Shown in pieces: positions 10,276 through 62,529 of a DNA stretch of 64,000 nt. A model generated the notes under the pieces. The model was not told where the DNA came from. It did not search any database and saw nothing but the letters and a program-made list of their open reading frames with translations. Both the position numbers and the translations under genes were made by a program. The DNA comes from Patescibacteria group bacterium (GTDB taxonomy: Bacteria > Patescibacteriota > Patescibacteriia > UBA1558 > GWA2-36-10): NCBI GenBank assembly GCA_041665505.1, contig JBAYIR010000005.1, forward strand, positions 225 to 64,224, in the 5' to 3' direction. Positions within the stretch are counted from its first letter, which is position 1. Each line of letters begins with the position of its first letter.

Positions 10276-11595
10276 GTGATTTTGATGAGCAAAAGCAAAA
10301 GTTTTTTGTTGGCTAGTCTTATTTTTTTATTGAGTAATTTAGTTTATTTGCTTTATTTTGAAAATAAAGGCAATCATAGTTTTAACTATGGTTCTTTTTA
10401 TACTTTTAAAGCTATTGTCAAAAACACAGACAAAAAATTAAATGGCTATAATTTGATAGTAGAGCCGATAGACTTGGCCAATTTTTCTGGTCAGATATTA
10501 GTTTATACGGACTTATATCCAGAATATAGTTATGGTGATATTTTACTTATCAAAGCCAAAGTTTATCAACCAGAGCCCATTGCCGATGAAACTGGAAAAG
10601 TCTTTAGGTATGATAAATATTTAGCTAAGGATGATATTTTTGCTACTTGTTTTCGCCCTCAGATAGAAGTGTCTGATCAACAAAAGGATTGGTTTTTTTA
10701 TGTTTATCGGCTTCGACAACATCTGTGGAATAATTTAGATAGGCATCTGGTCGAGCCAGCTTCGTCACTAGCCAAGGCTATGCTTTTGGGTACTCAGCGT
10801 GAATTTGCTCCAGAGATCAGAGCTATTTTTTCTCAAGTGGGCTTAAGTCATATTATTGCTATTTCTGGTTCACATATGGTGATTGTAGTTTGGCTAATAC
10901 AAATTATTTTTCTTTCTTTTGGTTTTAATCGTAAGTTAATATTTTGGCTTTTACTTATATCTTTATTTTTGTATTTGGCTTTAATTGGGTTTTTACCGCC
11001 AGCTCTTCGATCCAGTCTAATGGTTATAATTAGTTTAGCCGGACCATTTTTGGGGCGTTCAAATTTATCAGTCTGCAGTTTGCTCTTAGTAGCTGATTTG
11101 ATGATTATTTTCAATCCTTACTTACTGATTTATGATTTGGGCTTTCAACTGTCTTTTTTATCAGTTTTGGGGCTTATTTATTATAGCCATTTTTTTACCA
11201 GATTATTTTCTTTTTTGCCTGATGTTTTTAAGATTAGAGAAGTTTTGGCTACGACGATGTCAGCTCAATTTTTTATTGTGCCACTGATTTTGTATCATTT
11301 TGGTATTTTGTCTCTTATTTCACCTTTAGCCAATTTTTTGGTTTTACCTTTAGCTACTATGATTTTAATTTTTAGTTTTCTGCTAGCTATTTTTGGTGCT
11401 TGGTCATTTTTGGCAGTGATATTTTCTTGGCCACTTTATATTTTGTTTAAAATAATGGTAGAGATTAGTGAATTTTTAGCTCGTCTGCCTTGGTCTTATT
11501 TTAATATTGATAATTTTAATGTTTATTATTTATTAATTTCTTATGTATTTTTAATTATTATTACTTTTATTTTAAAACCCCTTGAATATGAATAA
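10276..11595 (+). CDS. comEC: ComEC/Rec2 N-terminal part (DUF4131 + competence channel domain)
   Basis: Polytopic membrane protein carrying the ComEC competence-domain signature QVGLSHIIAISGSHMV. Confidence 0.8.
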   Translation: MILMSKSKSFLLASLIFLLSNLVYLLYFENKGNHSFNYGSFYTFKAIVKNTDKKLNGYNLIVEPIDLANFSGQILVYTDLYPEYSYGDILLIKAKVYQPEPIADETGKVFRYDKYLAKDDIFATCFRPQIEVSDQQKDWFFYVYRLRQHLWNNLDRHLVEPASSLAKAMLLGTQREFAPEIRAIFSQVGLSHIIAISGSHMVIVVWLIQIIFLSFGFNRKLIFWLLLISLFLYLALIGFLPPALRSSLMVIISLAGPFLGRSNLSVCSLLLVADLMIIFNPYLLIYDLGFQLSFLSVLGLIYYSHFFTRLFSFLPDVFKIREVLATTMSAQFFIVPLILYHFGILSLISPLANFLVLPLATMILIFSFLLAIFGAWSFLAVIFSWPLYILFKIMVEISEFLARLPWSYFNIDNFNVYYLLISYVFLIIITFILKPLEYE

Positions 11596-12388
11596 AAATT
11601 ATTATTTTTTATTTATTTTTTTACTTCTACTAATCTTATTTTTTACTTTAAAAAATGATGAAAAATTAGCAGTGTATTTTCTCGACGTCGGTCAAGGCGA
11701 TGCTATTTTAATCAGAACGCCAGAGAATCAAAATATTTTAATAGACGGCGGGCCGGATAATAATTTACTTTATCAAGTAGCCAATCATTTACCTTGGTGG
11801 GAAAGGACTATTGATTATTTAGTTATTACGCATTATCACACAGATCATTATGTCGGTTTTTTGGATTTATTAGATAAATATAAGATAAAAAATATTTTAG
11901 TGACAGCCAATGAGCCAAATGATTTTTTATATTATCAGTGGTTAGAAAAATTAAAAGAAAAAAATCTAAAGCCCAGTGTGGTCAGGGCAGGGGAGAACTT
12001 TGTAGTCAGTCCAGACTTAAATTGGCGAGTGCTTTTGGCGGATAGTCAGCACGAAGATTTAAATGAAAATTCTATAGTTATAAAATTGACTTATAAAGAT
12101 ACAGATTTTTTGTTGATGGGCGATTTGCCAGTGGAAGGTGAGCAAAAATTATTAGCCAGCGATTTTGATCTTGATTCGGAAATACTCAAAGTTGGCCATC
12201 ACGGTAGTAAATATTCATCTTCGGAAGAATTTTTAAAAGCAGTTTCTCCAGAAATTTGTGTGATTCAATCAGGACTAGACAATAAATTTAATCATCCCCA
12301 TGAGGAAGCTATGACAAGATTAGAAAATATCGGCTGTGATATAAGAAATACACAAAATTTAGGGCTAATTAGTTTGTTTTTTGATTAG
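11582..12388 (+). CDS. ComEC-type metallo-beta-lactamase domain protein (separate ORF, own N-terminal TM anchor)
   Basis: LDVGQGDAILIRTP and HYHTDHYVGF (HxHxDH) motifs of the ComEC C-terminal MBL domain. Overlaps the preceding ORF by 14 nt in another frame. Confidence 0.8.
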   Translation: MNMNKNYYFLFIFLLLLILFFTLKNDEKLAVYFLDVGQGDAILIRTPENQNILIDGGPDNNLLYQVANHLPWWERTIDYLVITHYHTDHYVGFLDLLDKYKIKNILVTANEPNDFLYYQWLEKLKEKNLKPSVVRAGENFVVSPDLNWRVLLADSQHEDLNENSIVIKLTYKDTDFLLMGDLPVEGEQKLLASDFDLDSEILKVGHHGSKYSSSEEFLKAVSPEICVIQSGLDNKFNHPHEEAMTRLENIGCDIRNTQNLGLISLFFD

Positions 12389-12506
12389 TATTGTCAAATT
12401 TTTTGGATATTGCTAAAATTAAATAACTTGTGAGCGATGCTTACGAGTGTTGCTCACCTAACGGCGCACCATGTGCGCCAGGCCTCTAGCCGAGGGAGAG
12501 ATTCCT

Positions 12507-12647
12507 ATGAGAATCACCATCCATCCGACGTTGACCGCGCGAAGACGGAAGAACACCGAGCAGGCGACGCAGAAGGCCACGGCGACCAAGAAGGCCGCGA
12601 GGAAGAAGAACGCCAAGAAGGCGACGAGCAGCGAGGCGATCGTCTAG
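12507..12647 (+). CDS. Candidate small basic protein (46 aa) inside island 1
   Basis: SD GGGAGAG 6 nt upstream of ATG 12507 and ~89% GC3. The overlapping acidic frame 12437..12727 has ~50% GC3 and is probably not coding. Terminator hairpin 12676-12696 plus T-run follows. Confidence 0.35.
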   Translation: MRITIHPTLTARRRKNTEQATQKATATKKAARKKNAKKATSSEAIV

Positions 12648-12955
12648 GAGACGACTTCTCCGATGATGACGAGGGGCCCCCGGACACTACGGGGGCTCTA
12701 CTTTTTTTACTGCGATTTATTATTTAGTCTTATTTATAAATATTAGTTTGGATTGACTAGTTTTAGCCTCTTTGCTATCCTAAAATCAGCATTTCTCGCA
12801 TAGCTTGTTAGCTCGGTAAGGAGGAAGTCTCAAACAAAGAGCTCTCGAGTTTTCGGGAAATGTAGCCACAAGGCTTAACCAAGGAGGTTTTAACCGATCA
12901 TCACATGCCACTATGAGAGTGGCATTCACTCCGTCATGCATGGAGGTTTGTGGGC

Positions 12956-13480
12956 ATGAAGCCTATTCTTCGGTGGGCATGCCTCAGCGGTGTGCTGGCC
13001 ATTCTGGCTATCTTGACGCCCTGCCAGGGAGCCACCTGCCAGAATGACGAAGCGGTCATCATGACCGCGCTGAATATCGCCAGTTGCGACGGCACGAGCG
13101 CCATCGCTCTGAGCGAAGTCAAGCTGACGGCTAATCCCGCGGATGGGAACGTCGTCAAGGTCACCATCAACCACCTGATGAGCGGACAGACCGTGGCTAC
13201 TGCCGGTGATGCTATTTGGCTCTACTACGCGCCTTCCTACGACGCCCGGCAGTTCAGCGACGCTTACGCGACTACTGTCGTCCTGGACGCCAACATGATC
13301 GCTTCGCCGGCACTCTTCACCTACACGCACACGGCCCGGGGTGCCCTGATGCCCGGCGACCAGCTGGTGGTTCAGCCCACCTACAATACCTCCAATACCT
13401 CGGCCAGCTCGGCCCGTACGTGGAGCTCTGATGCCACGGGCATTGCCGACATTGACATGGGCGGTCAGCAGGCCGCCTAG
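12956..13480 (+). CDS. Secreted Ala/Thr/Ser-rich protein (high-GC codon usage) inside island 1
   Basis: GGAGG 9 nt upstream of ATG 12956, signal peptide MKPILRWACLSGVLAILAILTPCQGA, TAG stop. The 8-bp inverted repeat ATGCCACT/AGTGGCAT at 12905-12925 lies just upstream. Confidence 0.5.
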   Translation: MKPILRWACLSGVLAILAILTPCQGATCQNDEAVIMTALNIASCDGTSAIALSEVKLTANPADGNVVKVTINHLMSGQTVATAGDAIWLYYAPSYDARQFSDAYATTVVLDANMIASPALFTYTHTARGALMPGDQLVVQPTYNTSNTSASSARTWSSDATGIADIDMGGQQAA

Positions 13481-13595
13481 TTCGATCTCCCGGTTCAGAG
13501 GACATACAGATCTGTGAACACCACACCGCTTTCCAAGCGGCAACAGTTGGTTTGTATCCATCTGTAAAGTCCTTCGGGTCAAGAAATGGCCCATT

Positions 13596-13660
13596 CCCGG
13601 CAAGAAGACACTATCTGGTTTCGGCCAGAGAAGACTTCTTGCCGGGTCTTCTTTTTGTCT
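13596..13660 (+). terminator. Intrinsic terminator closing island 1
   Basis: 12-bp perfect stem CCCGGCAAGAAG / CTTCTTGCCGGG followed by TCTTCTTTTTGTCTTG. Confidence 0.7.
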
Positions 13661-13709
13661 TGATTTTTATATTTATTTGACATATAATATAAGCATAAAT
13701 TATTAATAA

Positions 13710-14102
13710 TTGCGTTTTATGGCAGAAAATAAAACTAAAATTTTGTTAATCGAAGATGAAGAAATGTTGGCCAATATGTATGAGGTCAAATTTAAAAACG
13801 AAGGTTTTGATTTAGAAAAAGCCCTTGATGGTGCCGATGGATTAGTCAAAGCCAAAGCTAATAAACCAGATTTTATATTATTAGATATCATCATGCCTAA
13901 GATGGATGGTTTTTCTGTACTCAAAGCTCTTAAAGAAAATGAATCTACCAAAGATGTGCCAGTAATGCTTTTGACCAATCTTGGTCAAGATGAGGATATT
14001 GAAAGAGGCAAAGAGCTGGGTGCAGTTGGCTATTTAGTCAAAGCCAATGTTACTCCTTCCGAAGTAGTAGATGAGGTTAAGAAAAAATTAGCTAAAAAAT
14101 AA
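13710..14102 (+). CDS. Stand-alone response-regulator receiver domain (CheY-like)
   Basis: LLIEDEE, DFILLDIIMPKMDG and a conserved Lys in LVKANV. 130 aa with no output domain. Confidence 0.85.
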   Translation: MRFMAENKTKILLIEDEEMLANMYEVKFKNEGFDLEKALDGADGLVKAKANKPDFILLDIIMPKMDGFSVLKALKENESTKDVPVMLLTNLGQDEDIERGKELGAVGYLVKANVTPSEVVDEVKKKLAKK

Positions 14103-16158: not shown

Positions 16159-16186
16159 TTGACAAATTTTTTATTTGTGCTATAGT
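16159..16186 (+). promoter_or_regulatory. Near-consensus sigma70 promoter reading into island 2
   Basis: TTGACA (16159-16164), 16-nt spacer, extended -10 TGcTATAGT (16178-16186). A TGGTGAttTCACCA palindrome sits at the predicted transcription start. Confidence 0.6.
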
Positions 16187-16332
16187 ACACAATCTGGTGA
16201 TTTCACCATCCGTACCATTGACATTACACAGCTTGAAACAGGCTGTAGCATATTCCTCCACTAGGGAGGTATCCGCGCTTCTTGATTTCGGTCAAGAGGC
16301 ATAGTTCATGGCTCAATCATGGAGGTTTTTCC

Positions 16333-16434
16333 ATGCCCAACTGCCGCGGACCCACGCATCGCCGTCTCTCGAGTTTTCACAAGGACAACATCTTCACCAC
16401 CGACCGCGTCGCGGCCGCCAGCCCCCAGGCCTGA
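16333..16434 (+). CDS. Candidate small ORF (33 aa) in island 2
   Basis: GGAGG 8 nt upstream of ATG 16333, ~85% GC3, TGA stop. The overlapping ORF-track frame 16319..16504 has lower GC3. Confidence 0.25.
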   Translation: MPNCRGPTHRRLSSFHKDNIFTTDRVAAASPQA

Positions 16435-16666
16435 CCCGGGCGCCGGCGTCGTGATCGTGCTCCGGGAGAAATCCTGGGGCGTCCATCCACTGTTGGGTAG
16501 ATAAGGAGGCATTCGTCTATGCTTTCCTGGCTTCTGCCCGACGATGACCGTGTTGTCGAAGCCCTCGTCTGGGTCAGACAGCACAGAGTGGACCGCACCG
16601 TAAAGGCCGGTGTATGGACCACGCGTCATCGTTTTCTGACACCTGAACTGACAAGGAGAAACCAAA

Positions 16667-16780
16667 GTGTTCTTCCTCCTACCCGAGTACCGCGGGAAGG
16701 TCGCCGAAGGCGACGACCCTCACGCGGAGCGACGCGGGTTCCGCAGCGTTGTGGACGCTGTATGGGCCCATGATGAGTAG
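16667..16780 (+). CDS. Candidate small ORF (37 aa) in island 2
   Basis: AAGGAGAAACC upstream of GTG 16667, ~75% GC3, TAG stop. A further candidate ATG 16519 is preceded by TAAGGAGG, but its extent is ambiguous. Confidence 0.2.
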   Translation: MFFLLPEYRGKVAEGDDPHAERRGFRSVVDAVWAHDE

Positions 16781-17366
16781 CCTATTGCTGCTCATGAGTT
16801 CAGCCCTGGTTTTTTCCTAGGGAACGTTTGGTGCTTTGCGTCGAGGCCAGACTCGGCCCCTTTCTCTGAGAGGGCGCCGCCGGCGGTACGACGGATTGCT
16901 ACACAGCTAAAGACTTGCGCATCCCTGCGTAGCGCGCGTGCCTACGCTGCACCTGTTTCCTAGCTCGGCCCTCGGGCCCCGATGTCATGCGGACGCTTCC
17001 AGCGCCCGCGCAGACTGGGGCTCGAGGGCCTCTCATCAACACGGCCGCCAGCCGGCCTCCTTCAAGTGTTCCTCGTATTTTTTGATATGAGGTTGTCCCC
17101 GCGGGACATAATTCGCAGGATGCCCGGTGTGGTTCGTGTTGTTCTTCCCCTCGGGGGGCGCCTTCGTTTGCCGACTGCTCAGTAGCAGCCGACAATTCGA
17201 ATGGCGCTTCCCGGGGGCCTATTTTTTTTATTAAAAATTTTTATAAACAGTCCAAATCCTTGACTTTAATATTTTATTATGCTATTTTATTGGGGACTTT
17301 TGTCGCGTAATAATAATTAATTTTACGGACAGAATAGTCGCATTTTTTTATTTTTATTAACAAAAT

Positions 17367-18369: not shown

Positions 18370-20466
18370 ATGGAGCGACACCCTTTAGAAAAAGTAAGAA
18401 ATATTGGAATTATTGCGCATATTGATGCTGGTAAAACTACTGTTACCGAGCGTATTCTTTTTTATACTGGGAAAAAACATAAAATTGGCGAAGTCCATGA
18501 AGGTAAAGCCGAGATGGATTGGATGGAGCAAGAAAAAGAGCGCGGTATTACTATTACCTCAGCCGCTACAACTTGTTTTTGGGATTTACCAGATTGGTTG
18601 GGTGGAGGTAAAGCCAATATTAATATTATTGATACACCAGGTCACGTAGATTTTACTGTCGAAGTAGAAAGATCACTAAGAGTGCTTGATGGTGGCGTGA
18701 TTGTTTTTGATGGAGTAGCTGGTGTAGAACCACAATCAGAAACTGTTTGGAGACAAGCTGATAAATATCATGTGCCAAGATTGGCTTTTATAAATAAGAT
18801 GGATAGAATGGGTGCAGATTTCTATTTTGATATGGATACTATCCACGAGCGCTTGACCAAAAAAGCCTATCCTATGCAATTACCAATTGGTGCCGCTGAA
18901 ACATTTACTGGTATTATCAATGTCTTAGAGCGTGAAGCTTGGTACTATCTTGATGAAGATGGTAAACAATATGAAAAGCGTGAGGTTCCTGATGACATGA
19001 AAGATAAAGTAGAAAAATATCGAGCTGAACTGATTGAAGCAATTGTGGAAAATGATGAAACTTTGATGGAAAAATATCTTGGTGGGCAGGAGCCAGATTT
19101 AGTAGCCATCAAAAAAGTATTAAGACAAGCAGTAATTGATAATAAACTAGTACCAATTTTTTGTGGTAGTGCTTTGAAAAATAAAGGCGTCCAATTTTTA
19201 TTAGACGCAGTAGTATCTTATCTACCATCACCAATTGATGTGCCACCGATTGAAGGTAATGAACCAAGAAATGAAGAAAATATTATCCAAGTCAAGATTG
19301 GTGATAGTGAACCATTTGTTGGTTTGGCTTTTAAAGTAGCTACTGATCCTTATGTTGGCCGATTAACTTTTGTGCGTGTTTATTCAGGTACTTTAAAGGC
19401 TGGTTCTTATGTTTATAATGCTAATACAGAAAAGAAAGAAAGAATTGGTCGAATACTGCGAATGCACGCCAATGCCAGAGAAGAATTAACTGAAATTTTT
19501 AGTGGTGATATTGTGGCCGTAGTTGGTTTAAAAGACACTACCACTGGTCACACTATTTGTGATCCAGCTCGTCCAGTAGTTTTGGAAAGTATGGAATTCC
19601 CAGACCCAGTTATACACGTGGCGGTAGAACCAAAAACCAAGCAAGATCAAGAAAAAATGGGTATGGCTTTGGCCAAATTGACTGAAGAAGATCCTACCTT
19701 TACTGTCAGAAGTGATGAGGAGACAAATCAAACTATTATTGGTGGTATGGGAGAGCTTCACTTAGATATTATCGTTGATCGTATGAAACGTGAGTTTGGT
19801 GTGGAAGCTAATGTCGGTGCTCCTCAGGTAGCTTATAAAGAAACTATTACTGGTAGTGCTGAAGCTGAAGGAAAATATGTCAAGCAATCTGGTGGACGTG
19901 GTCAATATGGTCATTGTTGGTTGCGCTTGGAAGCTCAAGAGCCTGGTAAAGGATTTGAGTTTATAGAACAAATTAAAGGTGGTTCTATTCCTAAAGAGTT
20001 TATTGCGCCGATTGAAAAAGGTGTTAAAGAAACTATGAACAATGGTATTTTGGCTGGTTATCAGATTCAAGATGTCAAAGTGACTGTTTATGATGGATCA
20101 TATCATGATGTTGACTCTTCAGAAGCCGCTTTTAAAGTAGCTGGCTCTATGGCTTTTAAAGCTGCTTTTAGGCTAGCCAATCCAGTAATACTAGAACCAA
20201 TTATGAAAGTAGAAGCAGTTACTCCAGAACAATATATGGGCGATGTGATTGGTGATCTTAATTCCAAGAGAGGACAAATATCAAATATGACTGACAGAGC
20301 TGGGGCTAAGGTAATTAATGCTGAAGTGCCACTAGCTGAAATGTTTGGCTATGCTACTGCTCTTAGATCTATGACTCAAGGTAGAGCTAGTTATTCTATG
20401 GAGTTTGCTAAATATCAAGAAGTGCCTAGAAATGTCGCTGAAGAAATAATGAAAAAAAAGGCTTAA
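18370..20466 (+). CDS. fusA: Elongation factor G
   Basis: [10 protein letters not shown]1 motif and DTPGH. 698 aa. Confidence 0.95.
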
Positions 20467-20482
20467 ATTAATATTTATCTAT

Positions 20483-20513
20483 ACAGTCGCGTCTGACGCG
20501 GCTGTATTTTTTT
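20483..20513 (+). terminator. Intrinsic terminator after fusA
   Basis: ACAGTCGCGtctgaCGCGGCTGT followed by ATTTTTTTTG. Its core is nearly identical to the tuf terminator. Confidence 0.7.
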
Positions 20514-20572
20514 GTTTAAAAAAAGAAGTCGCCCGCCACTGCTGCTGCAGGGCGGGCGACGAAAGCGTCAGC

Positions 20573-20803
20573 CTATGTCGGCTGATGAAGCCTCTTTTCC
20601 AGGCTTCGGACGCGAGAACGCGTGATGCCTTTGGTCTTCAGCTGAGACCAGCTCAGAGCACGGTTCTTCAGCGCTCTTTTGATCATCATGATCATGGTAA
20701 AGAGTGTCAGTTCCGTAGGATCTTCATCCTCGAAGATCAACTGAGCCTTAGTGAGGAGCTCCTCGCTGGTCATATTAAAGTCCAGGTTCACAGCTTCGGA
20801 CAT
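20573..20803 (-). CDS. Hypothetical 76-aa protein (high-GC codon usage), island 3 cassette A
   Basis: AAAGGAG 7 nt upstream of ATG (reverse strand), TAG stop. Terminator GTCGCCCGCC...GCGGGCGAC plus T-run lies at 20527-20566 on the reverse strand. Confidence 0.45.
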   Translation of the reverse strand: MSEAVNLDFNMTSEELLTKAQLIFEDEDPTELTLFTMIMMIKRALKNRALSWSQLKTKGITRSRVRSLEKRLHQPT

Positions 20804-20858
20804 CAACTACTCCTTTTCGACTGTTACATCCTTGTGCAGGGGTGAACGAGGCAACATA

Positions 20859-20890
20859 ATAACATATATTTTAAGTTTAGTCAATCCAGC
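20859..20890 (-). repeat. Direct repeat copy 1 (27-nt exact match with copy 2); encodes reverse-strand promoter TTGACT-17-TATTAT
   Basis: Forward-strand ATAACATATATTTTAAGTTTAGTCAAT(C)CAG. Sits 43 nt upstream of the cassette A start. Confidence 0.7.
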
Positions 20891-20971
20891 TCTTAGTAAG
20901 GAGCTAGATTAATATTCAAAGGGGGCGCTTCTGGCGAAGCGCCCCCTCGGTGTCGGCTGACCGATGTCGGA

Positions 20972-21418
20972 TCAGACGAAGAAGTGTATGATCTTGATGT
21001 CCAGACCGTGATGATAATAGTATTCGCCGTTCATGTCGATGCCGACAACCGAGCCATCGGCAATCTTGTCGGGCAGATCCAACTGCATGGTCTTCATCAG
21101 GATTTCATGAGCCAGTTCGCTATGGATGCTGAACATCTTGATCTTCTGGAGAATCTCGAGATGACGATCGTACTCGCTCTGGCAGGTGCCAGCACAGTGG
21201 CCACGGCACTGCTCCGGCGGACAGAGCTCCTGGTGTTCGCGTTCCAGCTCCTTGAGGTCCTGCACGATTCCGTAGAACAAGCCCCATGCTCGTTTGACGT
21301 CTTTACTCGCTTTGATGCCGAGCAGCCGTCGTGGGTCGAGGATCTCCATCTTGGGCCAAGTGACCTTATCCAGATCGATCCCTTGGGCTCGATCGTTGAG
21401 TTCGCTGAGCAGGTTCAT
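20972..21418 (-). CDS. Hypothetical 148-aa Cys-containing protein (CPPEQCRGHCAGTC), island 3 cassette B
   Basis: AGGAGG 6 nt upstream of ATG (reverse strand), TGA stop. Terminator AGGGGGCGCTTCgccaGAAGCGCCCCCT lies at 20920-20950. The 5'UTR carries the 10-bp inverted repeat TAACGGTGTA / TACACCGTTA. Confidence 0.45.
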   Translation of the reverse strand: MNLLSELNDRAQGIDLDKVTWPKMEILDPRRLLGIKASKDVKRAWGLFYGIVQDLKELEREHQELCPPEQCRGHCAGTCQSEYDRHLEILQKIKMFSIHSELAHEILMKTMQLDLPDKIADGSVVGIDMNGEYYYHHGLDIKIIHFFV

Positions 21419-21593
21419 CTTACTCCTCCTGGATTCCCTTGCTAGGGAATGAAATAACGGTGTAACACAAATACCACATTAGTTAGTACACCGTTAGGCT
21501 AACTAATGTTTTTCAAAACACAGAATTAAAGAATATTATTATTCTTCAAGTCTATATTTTAAAATTTATAAACAACATTTCAGATTTATGTTT

Positions 21594-21625
21594 ATAACAT
21601 ATATTTTAAGTTTAGTCAATTCAGT
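21594..21625 (-). repeat. Direct repeat copy 2; reverse-strand promoter TTGACT-17-TATAAA for cassette B
   Basis: ATAACATATATTTTAAGTTTAGTCAAT(T)CAG. 31 of 32 nt identical to copy 1. Confidence 0.7.
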
Positions 21626-22074
21626 TGCGTCTGACCTGATTGGCCTAAAAATAAAACTCCAGATAAAAATCTGAAGTTTTATTTTATATCCCTCCTAAAT
21701 TTATCACTAGTTGCTAAACTTGGGAGGGGGCCGGTCTTTGTCAGACATTGATCGGCCTTGTGTGTGGGGTATGTGGGCAGATGTAGGCGGAGTAGCGGAG
21801 TTGATGGATAAACCCTTTTTTCCAAGGCATAAATCTGGAGCAGAGCTACCTAGCTTTTGGCCGTAGCCAGCTGAGGTCAGATAAATATACTGAAATTATT
21901 GAGTATAGACCCAATAGAATCTAGCTTTTTATCTGTTCTCTTTACTCCAAATTTATACCTTGGAAGGATGGATATTTAAAGAACTTTTTATGTTAATGTG
22001 GTAGTATAGCATATATTTATATTTTTGTCAAGCATATAAGCTCTGCTATTTGATGTTTTGATATAGCAATTTTC

Positions 22075-22102
22075 TTGACAAAAGACCTGTTTTTGCTATA
22101 AG
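22075..22102 (+). promoter_or_regulatory. sigma70-like promoter
   Basis: TTGACA, 16-nt spacer, extended -10 TGcTATAAG. Confidence 0.5.
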
Positions 22103-22137
22103 ATATGGGGACTTAAGTAGCTTTTAATCATAAAAAT

Positions 22138-22512
22138 ATGTCAAATTATAAGCAAATGGACAAAGTTTTAGATTTAGCAGCTAAAACTGGCGATAAAGTG
22201 ATAGTTTTATCTGATCATCATGATCCTTATGTGATAATGACTGTTAAAGAATATGAAGCTTTATTACATGGTCCATCTTCAGTCAAGGATTTATCAGAAG
22301 ATGAATTGCTTAGTAAAATCAACCGTGATATAGCAGTTTGGAAAGCTTCTAAAGACGATTTAGATGATTATAGTTTAGATGATTTCAAGGTAGATACTTT
22401 ACGTAAAGATTTAAAAAACGTAGAAAAGCCTAGGGAAGATGCAGACAAAATTACTGTTGATAAGTCTATAGTGCCAGAAGAAGATAGATACTATATTGAG
22501 CCTGTAGATTAA
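22138..22512 (+). CDS. Hypothetical acidic protein
   Basis: 124 aa with no recognisable motif. Sits between island 3 and tuf. Confidence 0.5.
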   Translation: MSNYKQMDKVLDLAAKTGDKVIVLSDHHDPYVIMTVKEYEALLHGPSSVKDLSEDELLSKINRDIAVWKASKDDLDDYSLDDFKVDTLRKDLKNVEKPREDADKITVDKSIVPEEDRYYIEPVD

Positions 22513-22569
22513 AATTTTAGCTAATTTTAGCTAAAAGAGCTTAAAAAAGGATTTGGCACTCTTAGAGGC

Positions 22570-22598
22570 TTGCCAAAAGTCAAAAACAGTGCTATAAT
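22570..22598 (+). promoter_or_regulatory. Strong promoter for tuf
   Basis: TTGCCA, 17-nt spacer, extended -10 TGCTATAAT. A perfect palindrome TGTGTTTTAAAAACACACA follows at the predicted start. Confidence 0.65.
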
Positions 22599-22709
22599 CT
22601 TTGTGTTTTAAAAACACACAAAATTAATAAATAATAATTAATATTTTAAGATAGCTGGATCACAAACCCCTGAATTTTGAGGGGGGCTATCACAAGGAGA
22701 AAAAATCAA

Positions 22710-23897
22710 ATGGCAGATATTTTCAAACGTGAAAAGCCACACGTTAATGTGGGCACTATTGGTCACGTCGACCACGGTAAAACTACTTTGACAGCGGCTA
22801 TTTTAAAAGTTTTAAATGCTTCAGGTGGAATAGCTCAACAAAAGGATGTTGATCAAATTGACAATGCACCAGAAGAGAGAGAGCGTGGTATTACTATTGC
22901 TACAGCTCATGTTGAGTATGAATCAACAGCTAGACACTATGCACACGTTGACTGTCCAGGTCATGCTGACTATGTCAAAAACATGATTACTGGTGCAGCT
23001 CAAATGGATGGTGCAATACTAGTAGTATCAGCTGCTGATGGTCCAATGCCTCAAACTAGAGAACATATTCTATTAGCTCGCCAAGTTGGTGTGCCTTATA
23101 TAGTAGTTTTTCTAAATAAGATGGACCAAGTAGATGATCCAGAATTGGTAGATTTAGTAGAAGAAGAAATTAGAGATTTATTGAAGAAATATGAATTTCC
23201 TGGTGATACCACTCCAATTATTCGTGGTAGTGCTATCAAAGCTTTGGAAAATCCAAGTGGTGAGGATGCTAAACCTATTTTAGATTTAGTAAAAGCTTTG
23301 GATGATTATATTCCAGAACCAAAACGTGATACAGATAAACCATTTTTGATGCCAATTGAAGATATTTTTTCAATTGAAGGTCGTGGTACTGTAGTCACTG
23401 GTCGTATTGATAGAGGTATTATAAAATTGAATGAAGAAGTAGAATTGGTTGGTATCAATGACACCAGTAAGACTGTAGTCACTGGTATTGAGATGTTTAA
23501 CAAACAACTAGAAGAAGGTAGAGCTGGTGATAATGCTGGTTTACTTCTTCGTGGTACCAAGAAAGAAGATGTTGAACGTGGTCAAGTATTGGCCAAACCT
23601 GGTTCTATTACTCCTCATACAGAATTTGAAGCTGAAACTTATATCTTAAGTAAAGAAGAAGGTGGTCGTCATACCCCATTTTTCAAAGGATATAAACCAC
23701 AGTTTTATATTCGTACTACTGATGTTACTGGTGAAGTAGAACTTTCAGAAGGTGCAGAAATGGTTATGCCTGGTGATACAGTTAATTTGAAGATCAAATT
23801 AATATCCCCAGTAGCGCTTGAAGAAAAATCAAGATTTGCTATTCGTGAAGGTGGCCGTACTGTTGGTGCTGGTGTAGTAACCAAAATTATAAAGTAA
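22710..23897 (+). CDS. tuf: Elongation factor Tu
   Basis: [26 protein letters not shown]. Start taken at ATG 22710, which has AAGGAG upstream, rather than the ORF-track start at 22677. Confidence 0.95.
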
Positions 23898-61385: not shown

Positions 61386-61452
61386 TTTTTGGGTAAATAA
61401 AGAAGCGCCTCACGGGTGGACTGATGTCCCGCCGCGAGGCGCCCAAGACGAT

Positions 61453-61878
61453 TCATACAACATCGCCGCTGTCTTCATATCGTACGCCATCGCTATCGAG
61501 GCGTACCTCAATGCTGGTGTCAAACACGCTGCAGAGGGTTTGGCACAACTCTACGACTTCTTGGCGATGCATTTCGCCGTTGAATTCAAAGACCCAGTGG
61601 TCTTCGGTAGCACTTCGCCGGCTGTTCTCGAACCAGATGACACCGATGAGCAGGTGCATGTGTTGTCCCAGCAGCAGACGCAGCAGGCCCCGGCGAGGCT
61701 TCTTGGTGGGGTTCCATTTGAGAATCCCCAGTGAATCTTCGGGTGACAGGGGAGCTTTGAGTTTACTCCCGCCACATGATGCCAACTCCCAGCCTTGGTT
61801 CTTGAGCCATCGCCCAACTCGGATCGAGATGTGGACATCTGACACCTTAACTTCAGGAGTGTTCACGTCTAACCTCAC
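61453..61878 (-). CDS. Candidate 141-aa protein in island 4 (GTG start, weak SD)
   Basis: Reverse frame with plausible amino-acid composition, GC3-biased codons and a TGA stop. Other overlapping frames look like high-GC artefacts. Confidence 0.3.
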   Translation of the reverse strand: MRLDVNTPEVKVSDVHISIRVGRWLKNQGWELASCGGSKLKAPLSPEDSLGILKWNPTKKPRRGLLRLLLGQHMHLLIGVIWFENSRRSATEDHWVFEFNGEMHRQEVVELCQTLCSVFDTSIEVRLDSDGVRYEDSGDVV

Positions 61879-61934
61879 TTGCTAGGGGTGTACATTCATT
61901 GCCGCACTACTTTTGTAGTAGTCTTGACCTTGTG

Positions 61935-62489
61935 TCAGGCCAGACCGCGTCGCAGCTTGGCTGCGAAGTCCTTGGCGTAGTCTTCCTTGACCTGGAAGTC
62001 GGCCTGAGCTTCCGGCAGCAGACAGCGGAACTGTCCGATCACGTGCTGCTCCAAGTAGCTCAGCGACTCTTCCACGGTCTTGCCCATCGCCGCCCCACTG
62101 GCGAAGGTCTTGACGATCCAGAAGGTCTCGCCACCCTCCAAGAGGTGGGCATCGTGGACGATGTCGCCTTCGATGGTCAGGATGTCGTCGGGATTGGTGT
62201 CCTTCTGAGAATCCCAGGCAGTCCGGACAATGCGAGCAATGTCGCCCTCGCACACCTGCTGCGAACGCAGGAAAGTGATGGTGGCTTCTTCGCCGCCGGG
62301 CAGATGAATAACGCCATGGAAGTACAGCGCGACCCGGATCAGCTTCAGACTGGCCTCAGGGTAGTTCCGGGTCAGTTTCACGGAGATGTCCCAGATGCGG
62401 TCGATGTGGCACATGTTGTGCATCACGTCTTTGGCTTCGTAGTAGGGAGCTACGAAGTTGGAGACAGAGGAGAGCTTGAGTTTATCCAT
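61935..62489 (-). CDS. Hypothetical 184-aa protein in island 4
   Basis: ATG 62489 with AAAGG 9 nt upstream, TGA stop, GC3-biased. Contains MHNMCHIDRIW...YFHGVIH, His-rich and possibly metal-binding. The ORF-track start at 62558 runs into the promoter. Confidence 0.5.
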   Translation of the reverse strand: MDKLKLSSVSNFVAPYYEAKDVMHNMCHIDRIWDISVKLTRNYPEASLKLIRVALYFHGVIHLPGGEEATITFLRSQQVCEGDIARIVRTAWDSQKDTNPDDILTIEGDIVHDAHLLEGGETFWIVKTFASGAAMGKTVEESLSYLEQHVIGQFRCLLPEAQADFQVKEDYAKDFAAKLRRGLA

Positions 62490-62529
62490 CGTGTGGCCTT
62501 TCGGTTGGGGTACATAGGGCGGACTATAT

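Follow-up and report, generated by a model that had tools for sequence, protein, structure and literature searches.

Two GC-rich, moron-like single-gene units, probably of horizontal origin, between comEC and a response-regulator gene of a Patescibacteria genome

The DNA analysed here, a 64-kb stretch hereafter called the window, comes from a Patescibacteria genome of ∼33 per cent GC and Parcubacteria-like character. Between its comEC and response-regulator (RR) genes lies a segment of ∼1.2 kb, island 1, that is made up of two single-gene units (cassettes 1a and 1b), each with a promoter, a ribosome-binding site (RBS), a GC-rich open reading frame (ORF) and a terminator. Upstream, ComEC is encoded by two ORFs, one with the Competence domain and a separate metallo-beta-lactamase (MBL) ORF, and the genes flanking the island are those for ComEC, the response regulator, Ndk, L28, an M50 protease and S12. 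An earlier note on this DNA had listed a number of sequence features, and on inspection of the sequence all of them were found where it had placed them. The features of island 1 are as follows.

12391-12419, + strand: predicted promoter P(a), TTGTCA-17-TAAAAT with a TG-extended -10; 10/12 matches; directly 3' of the comEC-MBL stop codon
12426-12506, + strand: GC-rich 5' leader of 1a with two predicted hairpins, 12426-12448 and GGCGCAC-CAT-GTGCGCC at 12463-12479
12507-12647, + strand: 46-aa orphan ORF (candidate), highly basic and Lys/Ala/Thr-rich; NCBI hypothetical protein MFA6466870.1
12673-12708, + strand: predicted intrinsic terminator of 1a; 10-bp stem (12673-12699) with 8 GC pairs and a 7-nt loop, then a T7 run
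12753-12781, + strand: predicted promoter P(b), TTGACT-17-TATCCT with a TG-extended -10; 9/12 matches; within the 26 per cent GC linker
12786-12955, + strand: 5' leader of 1b, ∼170 nt; first ∼120 nt (to ∼12906) homologous to the leader in relative L003, the remainder being palindrome and RBS
12905-12925, + strand: perfect palindrome ATGCCACT-ATGAG-AGTGGCAT; 8-bp arms, 5-nt spacer; can form an RNA hairpin in the leader
12929-12946, + strand: hairpin CUCCGU/AUGGAG from fold prediction, pairing the Shine–Dalgarno (SD) sequence GGAGG (12942-12946) of the 174-aa ORF
12956-13480, + strand: 174-aa orphan ORF with a predicted N-terminal signal peptide and an Ala/Thr/Ser-rich mature part of ∼149 aa; NCBI MFA6466871.1
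13481-13595, + strand: structured 3' UTR of 1b, including the hairpin CCGCUU-UCC-AAGCGG; 117/128 identical in variant L002
13596-13659, + strand: predicted terminator of 1b; perfect 12-bp stem CCCGGCAAGAAG (13596-13607)/CTTCTTGCCGGG (13635-13646); right edge of the island
13660-13688, + strand: resident RR-gene promoter TTGATT-17-TATAAT; host DNA, right-hand limit of the insertion site

The GC mosaic of island 1 is far beyond chance. The body of cassette 1a has 61 per cent GC and the coding sequence (CDS) of 1b 61.5 per cent, against 26 per cent in the linker and 16 per cent in the flanking promoters, and the steps are abrupt; 300-bp windows of the host average 33.4 ± 4.3 per cent and reach 43 per cent at most, an offset of +28 points for the cassettes. 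At third codon positions GC (GC3) is 0.91 in the 46-aa ORF, which had been put at ∼89 per cent, and 0.77 in the 174-aa ORF, compared with 0.26-0.27 in host genes. Four islands of such layout occur in the window.

Judged by their motifs, the AT-rich linkers are of the host's own strong-promoter type. P(a) is a member of a host class of strong promoters, TTG[AT]C[AT]-N13-16-TGCTA[AT], that occurs in 8 copies in the window (the rpsL promoter included) against 0.4 expected. It is this enrichment, together with placement, that gives the promoters and terminators of the region their significance, and not their counts, which at 3 and 3 are near the shuffle means of 1.7 and 1.7. P(a) would drive cassette 1a, and P(b), the second promoter that the earlier note had recognised in the AT-rich linker and that is indeed present at 12753-12781, would drive cassette 1b; both are predicted from sequence only to be autonomous transcription units.

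Cassette 1a would give rise to a ∼280-nt transcript encoding a 46-aa peptide of net charge +11 (13 K/R, 2 D/E). The RBS of this unit is GAGGGAGAG at 12491-12499, the GC1/2/3 values of the ORF are 0.38/0.53/0.91, and the predicted fold of 12426-12710 compares favourably with shuffles (z = -3.74). The terminator said to follow the ORF is also there, with its stem beginning at 12673. No homolog was found in any protein or family search, Pfam, PHROGs, PADLOC and NCBIfam included, and the ORF is a candidate for translation. The peptide could be a nucleic-acid binder; alternatively, the 1a RNA may itself be the product.

The 174-aa ORF of cassette 1b is, on its sequence characters, a real gene, given its GC3 of 0.77 against 0.26 in the host and the pattern of change between it and a variant in an ENA metagenome (L002), with which its product shares 81 per cent aa identity: all six indels are multiples of three (+3, +3, +9, +6, -15 and -6 nt) and dN/dS is 0.34-0.49. 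Its GC1/2/3 values of 0.56/0.51/0.77 follow the order GC3>GC1>GC2, as in a genome of ∼60 per cent GC. The start codon, ATG 12956, comes 9 nt after the GGAGG at 12942-12946, the second of two such sites (the other at 12883-12887) that had been claimed before this ORF and that are both present; an in-frame GTG at 12950 was rejected as a start, being too near the same GGAGG. A lack of coding potential had been named as a possible refutation, and the NCBI and JGI gene callers each call both ORFs of the island. The L002 contig shows the 174-aa unit alone, but it is too short to be informative on a pairing of the two ORFs.

The predicted signal peptide was examined with a rule-based check (positive n-region, hydrophobic core of 10-15 residues, small residues at -3/-1), and all of these features were found, in support of the signal peptide named in the earlier note: an n-region of charge +2 (K2, R6), a 14-residue core ACLSGVLAILAILT of mean KD 2.46, and a cleavage site C-Q-G|A-T with small residues at -3/-1 and probable cleavage after G25, before A26. 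The ORF is thus predicted to agree with Sec/signal peptidase I substrates in charge, core and -3/-1 residues. The lipobox that the note had also suggested looking for is absent, as the motif [LVI][ASTVI][GAS]C has no match in the ORF and the nearest sequence, L-T-P-C23, places Pro at -1 of Cys23. An mRNA of ∼870 nt would be expected from 1b, and its product would be exported by Sec and cut by signal peptidase I to leave a secreted or surface protein of ∼149 aa, perhaps with an accessory role at the cell surface, such as contact with the organism on which the bacterium lives. At the 3' end, the UTR and terminator fold with z = -3.84, and the 12-bp perfect-stem terminator described at the end of the island is present as such (13596-13607/13635-13646), enclosing a 6-bp hairpin with a UUCG loop and followed by the U-rich tail TCTTCTTTTTGT; a terminator scanner calls an alternative hairpin at 13627-13654.

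The leader of 1b is highly conserved and probably structured. It differs from L002 at 3 of 80 positions (77/80 the same), below the 9-14 changes expected from the synonymous rate of the CDS (dS = 0.115-0.17), its fold has z = -3.67, and the SD is paired in all predicted folds; in L002 a C>T change at 12931 turns a G-C pair of the SD hairpin into G-U, and with two sequences compared no covariation was found for the leader structures. The palindrome at 12905-12925 had been described as operator-like. As a perfect palindrome it stands, identical in L002, but the operator role is not supported: it is a single copy, it lies far inside the leader and the island encodes no regulator. That it would be the DNA operator of a dimeric repressor controlling the secreted-protein gene is very unlikely, even though a perfect 8+8 inverted repeat with a 5-nt spacer is fully kept in the diverged variant. 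It does not overlap the promoter, the predicted start site being ∼115 nt and the -10 ∼125 nt upstream of it; a search of the 64-kb window for the further copies that an operator might be expected to have gave none, even when 3 mismatches were tolerated; none of the genes of the island codes for a DNA-binding regulator; and the whole leader is conserved, not the palindrome alone. By our own estimate a stretch of 1.2 kb would contain ∼0.1 perfect palindromes of this kind (8+8, spacer of 3-8 nt), or one ∼10 per cent of the time, and the palindrome by itself is only mildly unusual.

Since the palindrome lies ∼115 nt past the start site and occurs once, an RNA hairpin beside a sequestered RBS appears more likely than a DNA operator, with the limit that local folds around the palindrome are no stabler than shuffles (z = -0.8 and -1.5). 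The leader may fold with its RBS paired beside the palindrome hairpin, and translation may then be gated at the RNA level. Such an arrangement would resemble SD-sequestering leader hairpins (RNA thermometers, translational operators) in that CUCCGU/AUGGAG is predicted to pair the GGAGG, here with the palindrome hairpin immediately upstream, and it differs from them in having neither an Rfam family match nor covariation.

Both ORFs of the island are orphans. The L002 variant is the single relative of the 174-aa ORF among about 5.8 billion proteins (5.8e9), and nothing credible was found among 1.84e9 representatives; a PDB sequence search gave a best E of 0.078, which is not credible, and the AlphaFold2 model of the protein has a pLDDT of 31 and is unusable. 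Pfam, PHROGs, PADLOC and NCBIfam returned no credible match for either ORF, the sole family match being NF038132 at E = 0.0065, with 16 bits against a cutoff of 90. Homology to Actinobacterial secreted antigens, for which a search had been suggested, was not borne out, no homolog of whatever kind being found. An exhaustive HMMER search put forward P0007 (E = 3e-4), a Kelch-like repeat lipoprotein matched through a low-complexity stretch and judged spurious, and the lipoprotein-like cassette ORF of relative L004 proved unrelated to the 174-aa protein (E = 0.4). A search for a donor in phage, plasmid and IMG/VR sequences (INPHARED included) gave no match. A search of the window against Rfam at gathering thresholds matched nothing, and one at E <= 1 was equally empty for 12380-13700, island 2 and the L003 insert; no ribozyme was found, and the window has no tRNA or tmRNA. 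A metagenome scan with the conserved leader motif yielded 13 hits, all due to chance inside coding regions of soil genomes of 57-69 per cent GC, and no new leader homologs. Diversification of the DGR type was also rejected, as the island contains no template/variable repeat pair and its substitutions relative to L002 are not adenine-specific.

The site of the island is variable among relatives in which the order comEC-RR-ndk-L28-M50 protease-rpsL is conserved. The comEC|RR gap is a hotspot: in three species (L004, L006 and L007) it is an empty, AT-rich stretch of about 100-200 nt, and in two others it holds unrelated units of promoter, transcript and terminator, namely a GC-rich insert of ∼550 nt in L003 and 3-4 tandem mini-units in L005, both without sizeable ORFs and with the look of promoter-RNA-terminator units. 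A second hotspot lies between the M50 protease gene and rpsL, where the gap is variably filled in every relative. At the left of island 1, P(b) is homologous to the promoter directly 3' of comEC in L003 (76 per cent over 34 nt), and the leaders of the two share the motifs GCTCGGWAAGGAGG, GAGCTCTCG and CGGGAAATG in a collinear alignment; at the right, the RR promoter is kept in L003 (86 per cent over 37 nt) and recognisable at the empty site of L004. Promoter and leader are thus shared with L003 while the cargo is not, the window ORFs having no protein-level similarity to the L003 insert (tblastn E = 2.5). Because the linkers are of host type and P(b) and its leader are homologous to those of L003, the mosaic can be read as resident expression signals joined to foreign cargo. 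The cassettes are not one element in several copies: all-against-all blastn-short comparison of the islands and the L003 and L004 inserts gave no match at E < 0.05. No terminal inverted or direct repeats of the island were found, no integrase domain in its ORFs or immediate flanks, and neither an attC-like site nor a repeat common to cassette ends within or between islands.

Island 1 is natural. Its layout of promoter, RBS, ORF and terminator looks very much designed, the GC steps are abrupt, and four such islands fall within 64 kb, so that one might suspect a chimera made in assembly, foreign DNA placed in the wrong bin, or an insertion of engineered or synthetic origin; such an origin is barely credible. 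An independent JGI contig has the same RR junction, and a separate ENA sample contains a diverged copy (81 per cent aa identity, in-frame indels); the island is therefore not an artefact of assembly or design. The JGI contig, L001, corresponds to window 12490-14101 with the RR gene included, and reproduces the right island-host junction, with 28 substitutions in its host part (island 0/1190, flank 28/383). Both junctions of sister island 3 are spanned in two further assemblies, JGI and Logan, and relatives from unrelated studies hold other inserts at the same sites. The earlier note had allowed that the region might map to a different contig or bin, and since host DNA adjoins it left and right and a second assembly reproduces its right junction, no such artefact is seen. 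The note's remark that the mosaic is unusual for natural horizontal transfer was not supported, as island and variant occur in public metagenomes, the linkers are host-type, and P(b) and the leader have homologs in L003. An identical island beside a 7 per cent diverged flank in L001 might be read as very recent transfer, but that reading was rejected because contig L060 of the same sample shows the same pattern in host genes, with identity over 3.2 kb (island plus ordinary host genes) and divergence confined to the final 434 bp. A mosaic of strains, or an assembler switching between them, would account for L001 equally well.

A natural island might still be something other than acquired genes. 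It is unlikely that the GC-rich segments encode structured non-coding RNAs (a class that stands out by its GC content in AT-rich genomes) with incidental ORFs, a reading to which the folds lend some weight, all three transcript segments folding better than shuffles (z = -3.7 to -3.8), as do the inserts of L003 and L005 that carry no sizeable ORFs at the same site, the want of a homolog for the 46-aa ORF, and UTRs conserved at least as well as the CDS. Long antisense ORFs are expected in GC-rich DNA, however, and antisense GC3 is not elevated here, whereas the sense frames have strong three-base periodicity with GC3 of 0.91 and 0.77, both ORFs have a correctly spaced SD, the larger has a signal peptide, six in-frame indels and dN/dS below 1, and Rfam is silent even at E <= 1; the RNA reading is plausible for cassette 1a only. 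A pairing of the two ORFs as a toxin-antitoxin or anti-phage defence module is highly improbable. Defence and toxin-antitoxin systems typically sit in variable hotspots, and two small adjacent genes in such a place invite the comparison, but PADLOC, Pfam and NCBIfam give no match, a strong terminator and a promoter split the ORFs into separate transcription units, and the larger protein is predicted to be exported, which is atypical for such toxins.

Quite unlikely, too, is a native origin, with the island as an old, vertically inherited and fast-evolving accessory unit 3' of comEC in which divergence between species has made the cargo unrecognisable. The promoter and ∼120 nt of leader common to the window and L003 at the same position, a similar promoter box in L005, and the failure to find mobility genes or a donor would all suit such a history. 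Against it, GC3 values of 0.77-0.91 are completely unlike those of host genes (0.26-0.27), with the pattern of the 174-aa ORF fitting a genome of ∼60 per cent GC, the site is empty in three related species, and the cargo shows no protein similarity to that of L003.

Island 1 is probably a pair of small, horizontally acquired and independently transcribed 'moron-like' islets in the comEC|RR hotspot. It is composition that points to a foreign origin of the cassettes. Each unit would run from a promoter through a structured leader and an SD to an ORF with the codon usage of a ∼60 per cent GC donor, and end in a strong intrinsic terminator. The cassettes may have been acquired and exchanged through uptake of DNA followed by recombination in the conserved flanks. 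Groundwater Patescibacteria often carry islands of horizontally transferred genes, for which competence is one suggested route (PMC12455944). That island 1 lies close to comEC is probably a coincidence, given that the other three islands are found elsewhere.

Several known systems resemble these cassettes in part. The 'morons' of lambdoid phages, associated with Juhala and Hendrix, are reportedly extra genes with their own promoter and intrinsic terminator lying between resident genes. The cassettes are alike in being, by sequence prediction, single genes with their own promoter and terminator, in their deviant composition (61 per cent GC against 33.4 ± 4.3 per cent in the host) and in sitting, present or absent, between genes that are adjacent in relatives (L004, L006, L007). 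They differ in lying on a cellular chromosome among housekeeping genes (comEC, ndk, rpsL, fusA) and not in a prophage, in having no phage genes nearby and no match in PHROGs, IMG/VR or INPHARED, and in using promoters of the host's own strong type. Because they are not in a phage or prophage genome, they are moron-like in working and not morons in the strict sense. With genomic islets at hotspots of horizontal transfer they have in common the intergenic position between syntenic core genes, the variable occupancy, the deviant composition and the orphan cargo, and they depart from them in their very small scale (0.3-0.9 kb, one gene each), the extreme GC offset, the lack of a tRNA, integrase or repeat boundary, and the recurrence of one layout at four sites in 64 kb.

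Integron gene cassettes carry attC at the 3' end, and are promoterless units served by an adjacent integrase and a common promoter. The units here are similarly compact, single-ORF, often orphan and variable between strains, with tandem stacking possible, but they have no attC, their 3' hairpins being followed by T-runs in the manner of terminators, and no integrase or common Pc, each being scattered with a promoter and terminator of its own. Homology-facilitated illegitimate recombination during natural transformation has been described in Acinetobacter and Streptococcus pneumoniae. This is a mechanism and not a family, and by analogy it would explain foreign cargo bounded by resident sequence (promoter and leader at the left, RR promoter at the right) in an organism that encodes ComEC.

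A wider and rather doubtful proposal is that the four islands and the variants in relatives reflect one hitherto unrecognised, clade-specific process in Parcubacteria-like CPR, whereby foreign GC-rich ORFs or RNAs would time and again be captured as compact modules of promoter, leader, cargo and terminator. Capture would take place at a small number of fixed 'landing pads' between genes, with conserved host promoters at their borders, and the modules would be swapped between strains by transformation and recombination to give rapidly exchangeable secreted or surface factors for dealings with the host. If true, this process would be the chromosomal counterpart of an integron or moron system, one that works without an integrase.

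The genomes of Patescibacteria are tiny, and these bacteria depend on other microbes. As the locus illustrates, single-gene inserts with a strongly foreign composition can make up a sizeable part of a genome segment (6.8 per cent of the 64 kb). They are connected to the strongest type of host promoter, occupy sites whose content changes from one related species to another, and at least sometimes encode proteins predicted to be exported. For the curation of metagenome-assembled genomes (MAGs), the 'designed-looking' mosaic of promoter, RBS, ORF and terminator occurs in nature and does not have to be taken for contamination. If the pattern is genome-wide, it would offer streamlined epibionts a cheap route to trial foreign genes, and orphan secreted proteins would become candidate factors of host contact.

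Island 1 is a 1.24-kb block of sharply deviant composition located between the stop of the comEC metallo-beta-lactamase (MBL) gene (12388) and the start of a response-regulator (RR) gene (13719), within a segment of housekeeping genes at ~33% GC (300-bp windows of host DNA: mean 33.4% +/- 4.3%, maximum 43%). Pfam identifies its neighbours as ComEC, a receiver-domain response regulator, nucleoside diphosphate kinase, an M50 protease and ribosomal protein S12. The block holds two units, cassettes 1a (46-aa ORF) and 1b (174-aa ORF), and every promoter, ORF, terminator, palindrome and GGAGG site that the earlier note had listed is present where it was placed.

Features of island 1 and its left flank (window coordinates) and GC content by segment
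10276-11595: ComEC Competence-domain ORF
11582-12388: ComEC metallo-beta-lactamase ORF
12391-12419: promoter-like site, TG-extended -10
12507-12647: 46-aa ORF, net charge +11, GC3 0.91
12673-12708: terminator of the 46-aa ORF
12753-12781: promoter-like site, TG-extended -10
12883 and 12942: GGAGG sites
12905-12925: perfect palindrome
12956-13480: 174-aa ORF
13596-13607 / 13635-13646: terminal hairpin, perfect 12-bp stem with U-rich tail
GC: promoter of 1a, P(a), 16%; 1a body 61%; linker 26%; 1b leader 47%; 1b CDS 61.5%; 1b 3' UTR 50%; RR promoter 16%

The two ComEC ORFs overlap by a few nucleotides in the window (10276-12388) and in two related genomes (L003, 2126-4178; L004, 4755-6807), and as the split is kept in relatives it is not a frameshift error.

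Because the layout looks designed, the provenance of island 1 was checked first. Both proteins are deposited at NCBI (174-aa, MFA6466871.1; 46-aa, MFA6466870.1) as hypothetical proteins, from a 71-kb contig in a MAG labelled Patescibacteria group bacterium. A JGI contig (L001; 3300037810, Ga0376277_0334715) matches window 12490-14101, most of island 1 plus the host RR gene, and thus reproduces the right junction in a separate assembly; cassette 1b recurs in diverged form, at 81% protein identity, on an ENA contig (L002), and both junctions of island 3, another islet in the window, are spanned by JGI and Logan contigs. Taken together, these records disfavour chimeric assembly, mis-binning and synthetic origin, all of which are very unlikely for island 1, and the separate assembly and diverged copy speak against the earlier suspicion that the block is unnatural. 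The island part of L001 is identical to the window (1190/1190) and its RR gene is substituted at 28 of 383 bp, chiefly third codon positions (dS = 0.375), a contrast that might be read as very recent transfer. That reading was rejected because a second contig from the same sample (L060, equivalent to window 20216-23820) shows the same pattern within ordinary host genes: 3,171 bp including such genes are identical and the last 434 bp are 6% divergent. Over most of their length both contigs are identical to the window, and divergence of 6-9% is confined to the last 300-430 bp; the pattern is therefore not specific to islands in this sample, and it is explained equally well by several mosaic strains living together or by an assembler that switched strains close to contig ends. 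Contig ends of this kind are a trap for 'recent transfer' arguments.

Relatives were found by scanning species-representative genomes with the ComEC-MBL protein, and the gene order comEC-RR-ndk-L28-M50-rpsL is common to them.

Contents of the comEC|RR gap
L004, L006, L007: empty site, ~100-200 nt, AT-rich; RR promoter (CTTGATTTTTA...TATAAT) near the comEC stop
L003 (76% ComEC identity): different ~550-nt GC-rich insert, tiny ORFs only
L005: 3-4 tandem mini-units of promoter, ~150 nt and terminator
Window: cassettes 1a and 1b

The M50|rpsL gap holds island 2 in the window and is filled with different units in every relative (L004, L005, L006, L007). An intergenic hotspot at comEC|RR across the clade is the best explanation. 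The mini-units of L005 (6840-7640), each with promoter TGYTATACTAAAAGTGCTC, ~130-190 nt at ~45-50% GC and a terminator that is almost the same in all (CCCCTTCTC...GAGAAGGGG, then a T-run), resemble a series of small RNA genes whose terminator-promoter junctions have been duplicated. The M50|rpsL units include a 174-aa GC-rich lipoprotein-like ORF with lipobox FAGC and a faint cohesin match (E = 0.05) in L004 (9340-10180), a 65-aa ORF in L007 (9250-9580), and a ~300-nt GC-rich transcript-like unit with a Gln/Arg/Glu-rich small ORF in L006 (11090-12020).

The cassettes use expression signals of the host's type. The promoter form TTG[AT]C[AT]-N13-16-TGCTA[AT] is found 8 times in the window (expectation 0.4), and is the predicted promoter of four island cassettes and of the rpsL operon. 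The alternation of GC-rich ORFs and AT-rich linkers, once thought odd for natural transfer, is not odd given that the AT-rich parts are host expression signals. In L003 a segment directly after comEC is collinear with the 1b promoter, P(b), and ~120 nt of the 1b leader (motifs GCTCGGWAAGGAGG, GAGCTCTCG and CGGGAAATG); the next 400-750 nt are unrelated, and homology returns from the RR promoter onward. This arrangement points to a resident promoter and leader, exchangeable cargo with its terminator, and a resident downstream promoter, and would fit cargo being gained or swapped through recombination anchored in the conserved flanks.

There is good evidence that the 174-aa ORF codes for protein. 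Its codon-position GC (GC1/2/3 = 0.56/0.51/0.77) is what a gene from a genome at ~60% GC would show; long antisense ORFs are expected in GC-rich DNA, and the one crossing this gene has a GC3 of just 0.56. All six indels relative to L002 (+3, +3, +9, +6, -15 and -6 nt) keep the frame, Nei-Gojobori dN/dS is 0.49 overall and 0.34 over the well-aligned first 140 codons, a GGAGG Shine-Dalgarno (SD) site lies 9 nt upstream of the ATG, and the gene is present in the annotations of two independent pipelines. The N-terminus carries a textbook Sec-type signal peptide (+2 n-region, 14-residue hydrophobic core, C-Q-G|A cleavage site) and no canonical lipobox. Support for the 46-aa ORF is internal only (RBS, extreme GC3, gene calls), with no homolog in any search made; the ~280-nt 1a unit (fold z = -3.74) could act as RNA.

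The palindrome, proposed earlier as an operator, lies ~115 nt downstream of the predicted 1b transcript start, within the leader; it has no second copy in the window with up to 3 mismatches allowed, and no regulator gene lies nearby, all of which speaks against reading it as a classical DNA operator. In the transcript, the palindrome would form an 8-bp hairpin directly 5' of a hairpin (CUCCGU/AUGGAG) pairing the SD, which is paired in all predicted structures of the leader (whole-leader fold z = -3.67). The leader differs from that of L002 at 3 of 80 nt, where the synonymous rate of the CDS would predict 9-14, and all 3 differences preserve predicted pairs. The comparison is limited to these two sequences and shows no covariation, and the local fold around the palindrome is no more stable than shuffles. 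RNA-level control of 1b translation is a reasonable but unproven reading of these predicted folds.

The ORFs of island 1 have no credible match in Pfam, PHROGs, PADLOC or NCBIfam, and among 5.8 billion proteins the 174-aa protein matches only itself and the L002 variant. Exhaustive HMMER against 1.84 billion representatives added only a Kelch-like match (E = 3e-4), judged spurious; the best PDB match (E = 0.078) is not credible, and the AlphaFold2 model has pLDDT 31. Island 1 DNA has no match in phage and plasmid collections and no relative in IMG/VR. With family, protein, PDB and phage/plasmid searches all lacking a credible homolog beyond the L002 variant, the suggested kinship to Actinobacteria secreted antigens is unsupported.

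Four GC-rich islets make up 6.8% of the window; they share no common sequence, and searches turned up neither terminal repeats nor an integrase, attC-like sites or ribozymes. Island 2 (16190-17225, plus strand; host-type promoter at 16159), located in the M50|rpsL gap, has several tiny ORFs with GGAGG sites (16334, 16519-16773, 16667-16780), then ~440 nt at 60% GC without a convincing ORF and a terminator at ~17200-17225; Rfam gives no match (best E = 0.72), and the segment may represent either an RNA gene or cargo that has decayed. Island 3 (20525-21500, minus strand), downstream of fusA and with 100% identical counterparts in JGI and Logan contigs, encodes two GC-rich orphans, a Cys-rich one of 148 aa and another of 77 aa. 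An identical 26-nt promoter box precedes each (20859-20884, 21594-21619; ~38 nt similar overall), which suggests promoter duplication or reuse during cassette stacking. The AT-rich spacer between it and a 124-aa gene at 22138 is a divergent promoter region (22006-22100) with three strong-type promoters (minus strand 22006-22031; plus strand 22025 and 22075). Island 4 (61400-62500, minus strand) has a 141-aa orphan and a 184-aa ORF whose N-terminus weakly matches HD-type phosphohydrolases (NF007515, E = 7.7e-8; phrog_3921, E = 5e-5). The 184-aa protein has a 50%-identical relative that stands alone, on the opposite strand, within a polysaccharide-synthesis cluster at 27% GC (L045, 8222-8752); the GC elevation of that relative is mild.

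The island 1 units resemble phage morons in having a promoter, one gene and a terminator, in their deviant composition, and in lying between genes adjacent in relatives; they differ in lying outside any phage, so strict moron membership fails on that feature. The defining features of an integron cassette, a known TA or defence module, a known RNA family and, for the 174-aa protein, a lipoprotein were looked for and are absent. The units also belong, as unexceptional cases, to the wide category of islets that chromosomal hotspots gain by horizontal transfer; such islands are documented as frequent in groundwater Patescibacteria, with competence one proposed route (PMC12455944). The earlier interpretation holds in part: the units are real and two in number, and one of them encodes a predicted secreted protein. 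The unnaturalness, the operator and the proposed homology find no support. Island 1 is probably two accessory cassettes, moron-like and acquired horizontally, that occupy an intergenic hotspot shared across the clade. It is rather unlikely that the recurring landing-pad pattern reflects a distinct, coherent mechanism across sites and species; island 1 alone is an orphan islet, and it is that recurrence across sites and species which may be worth pursuing.
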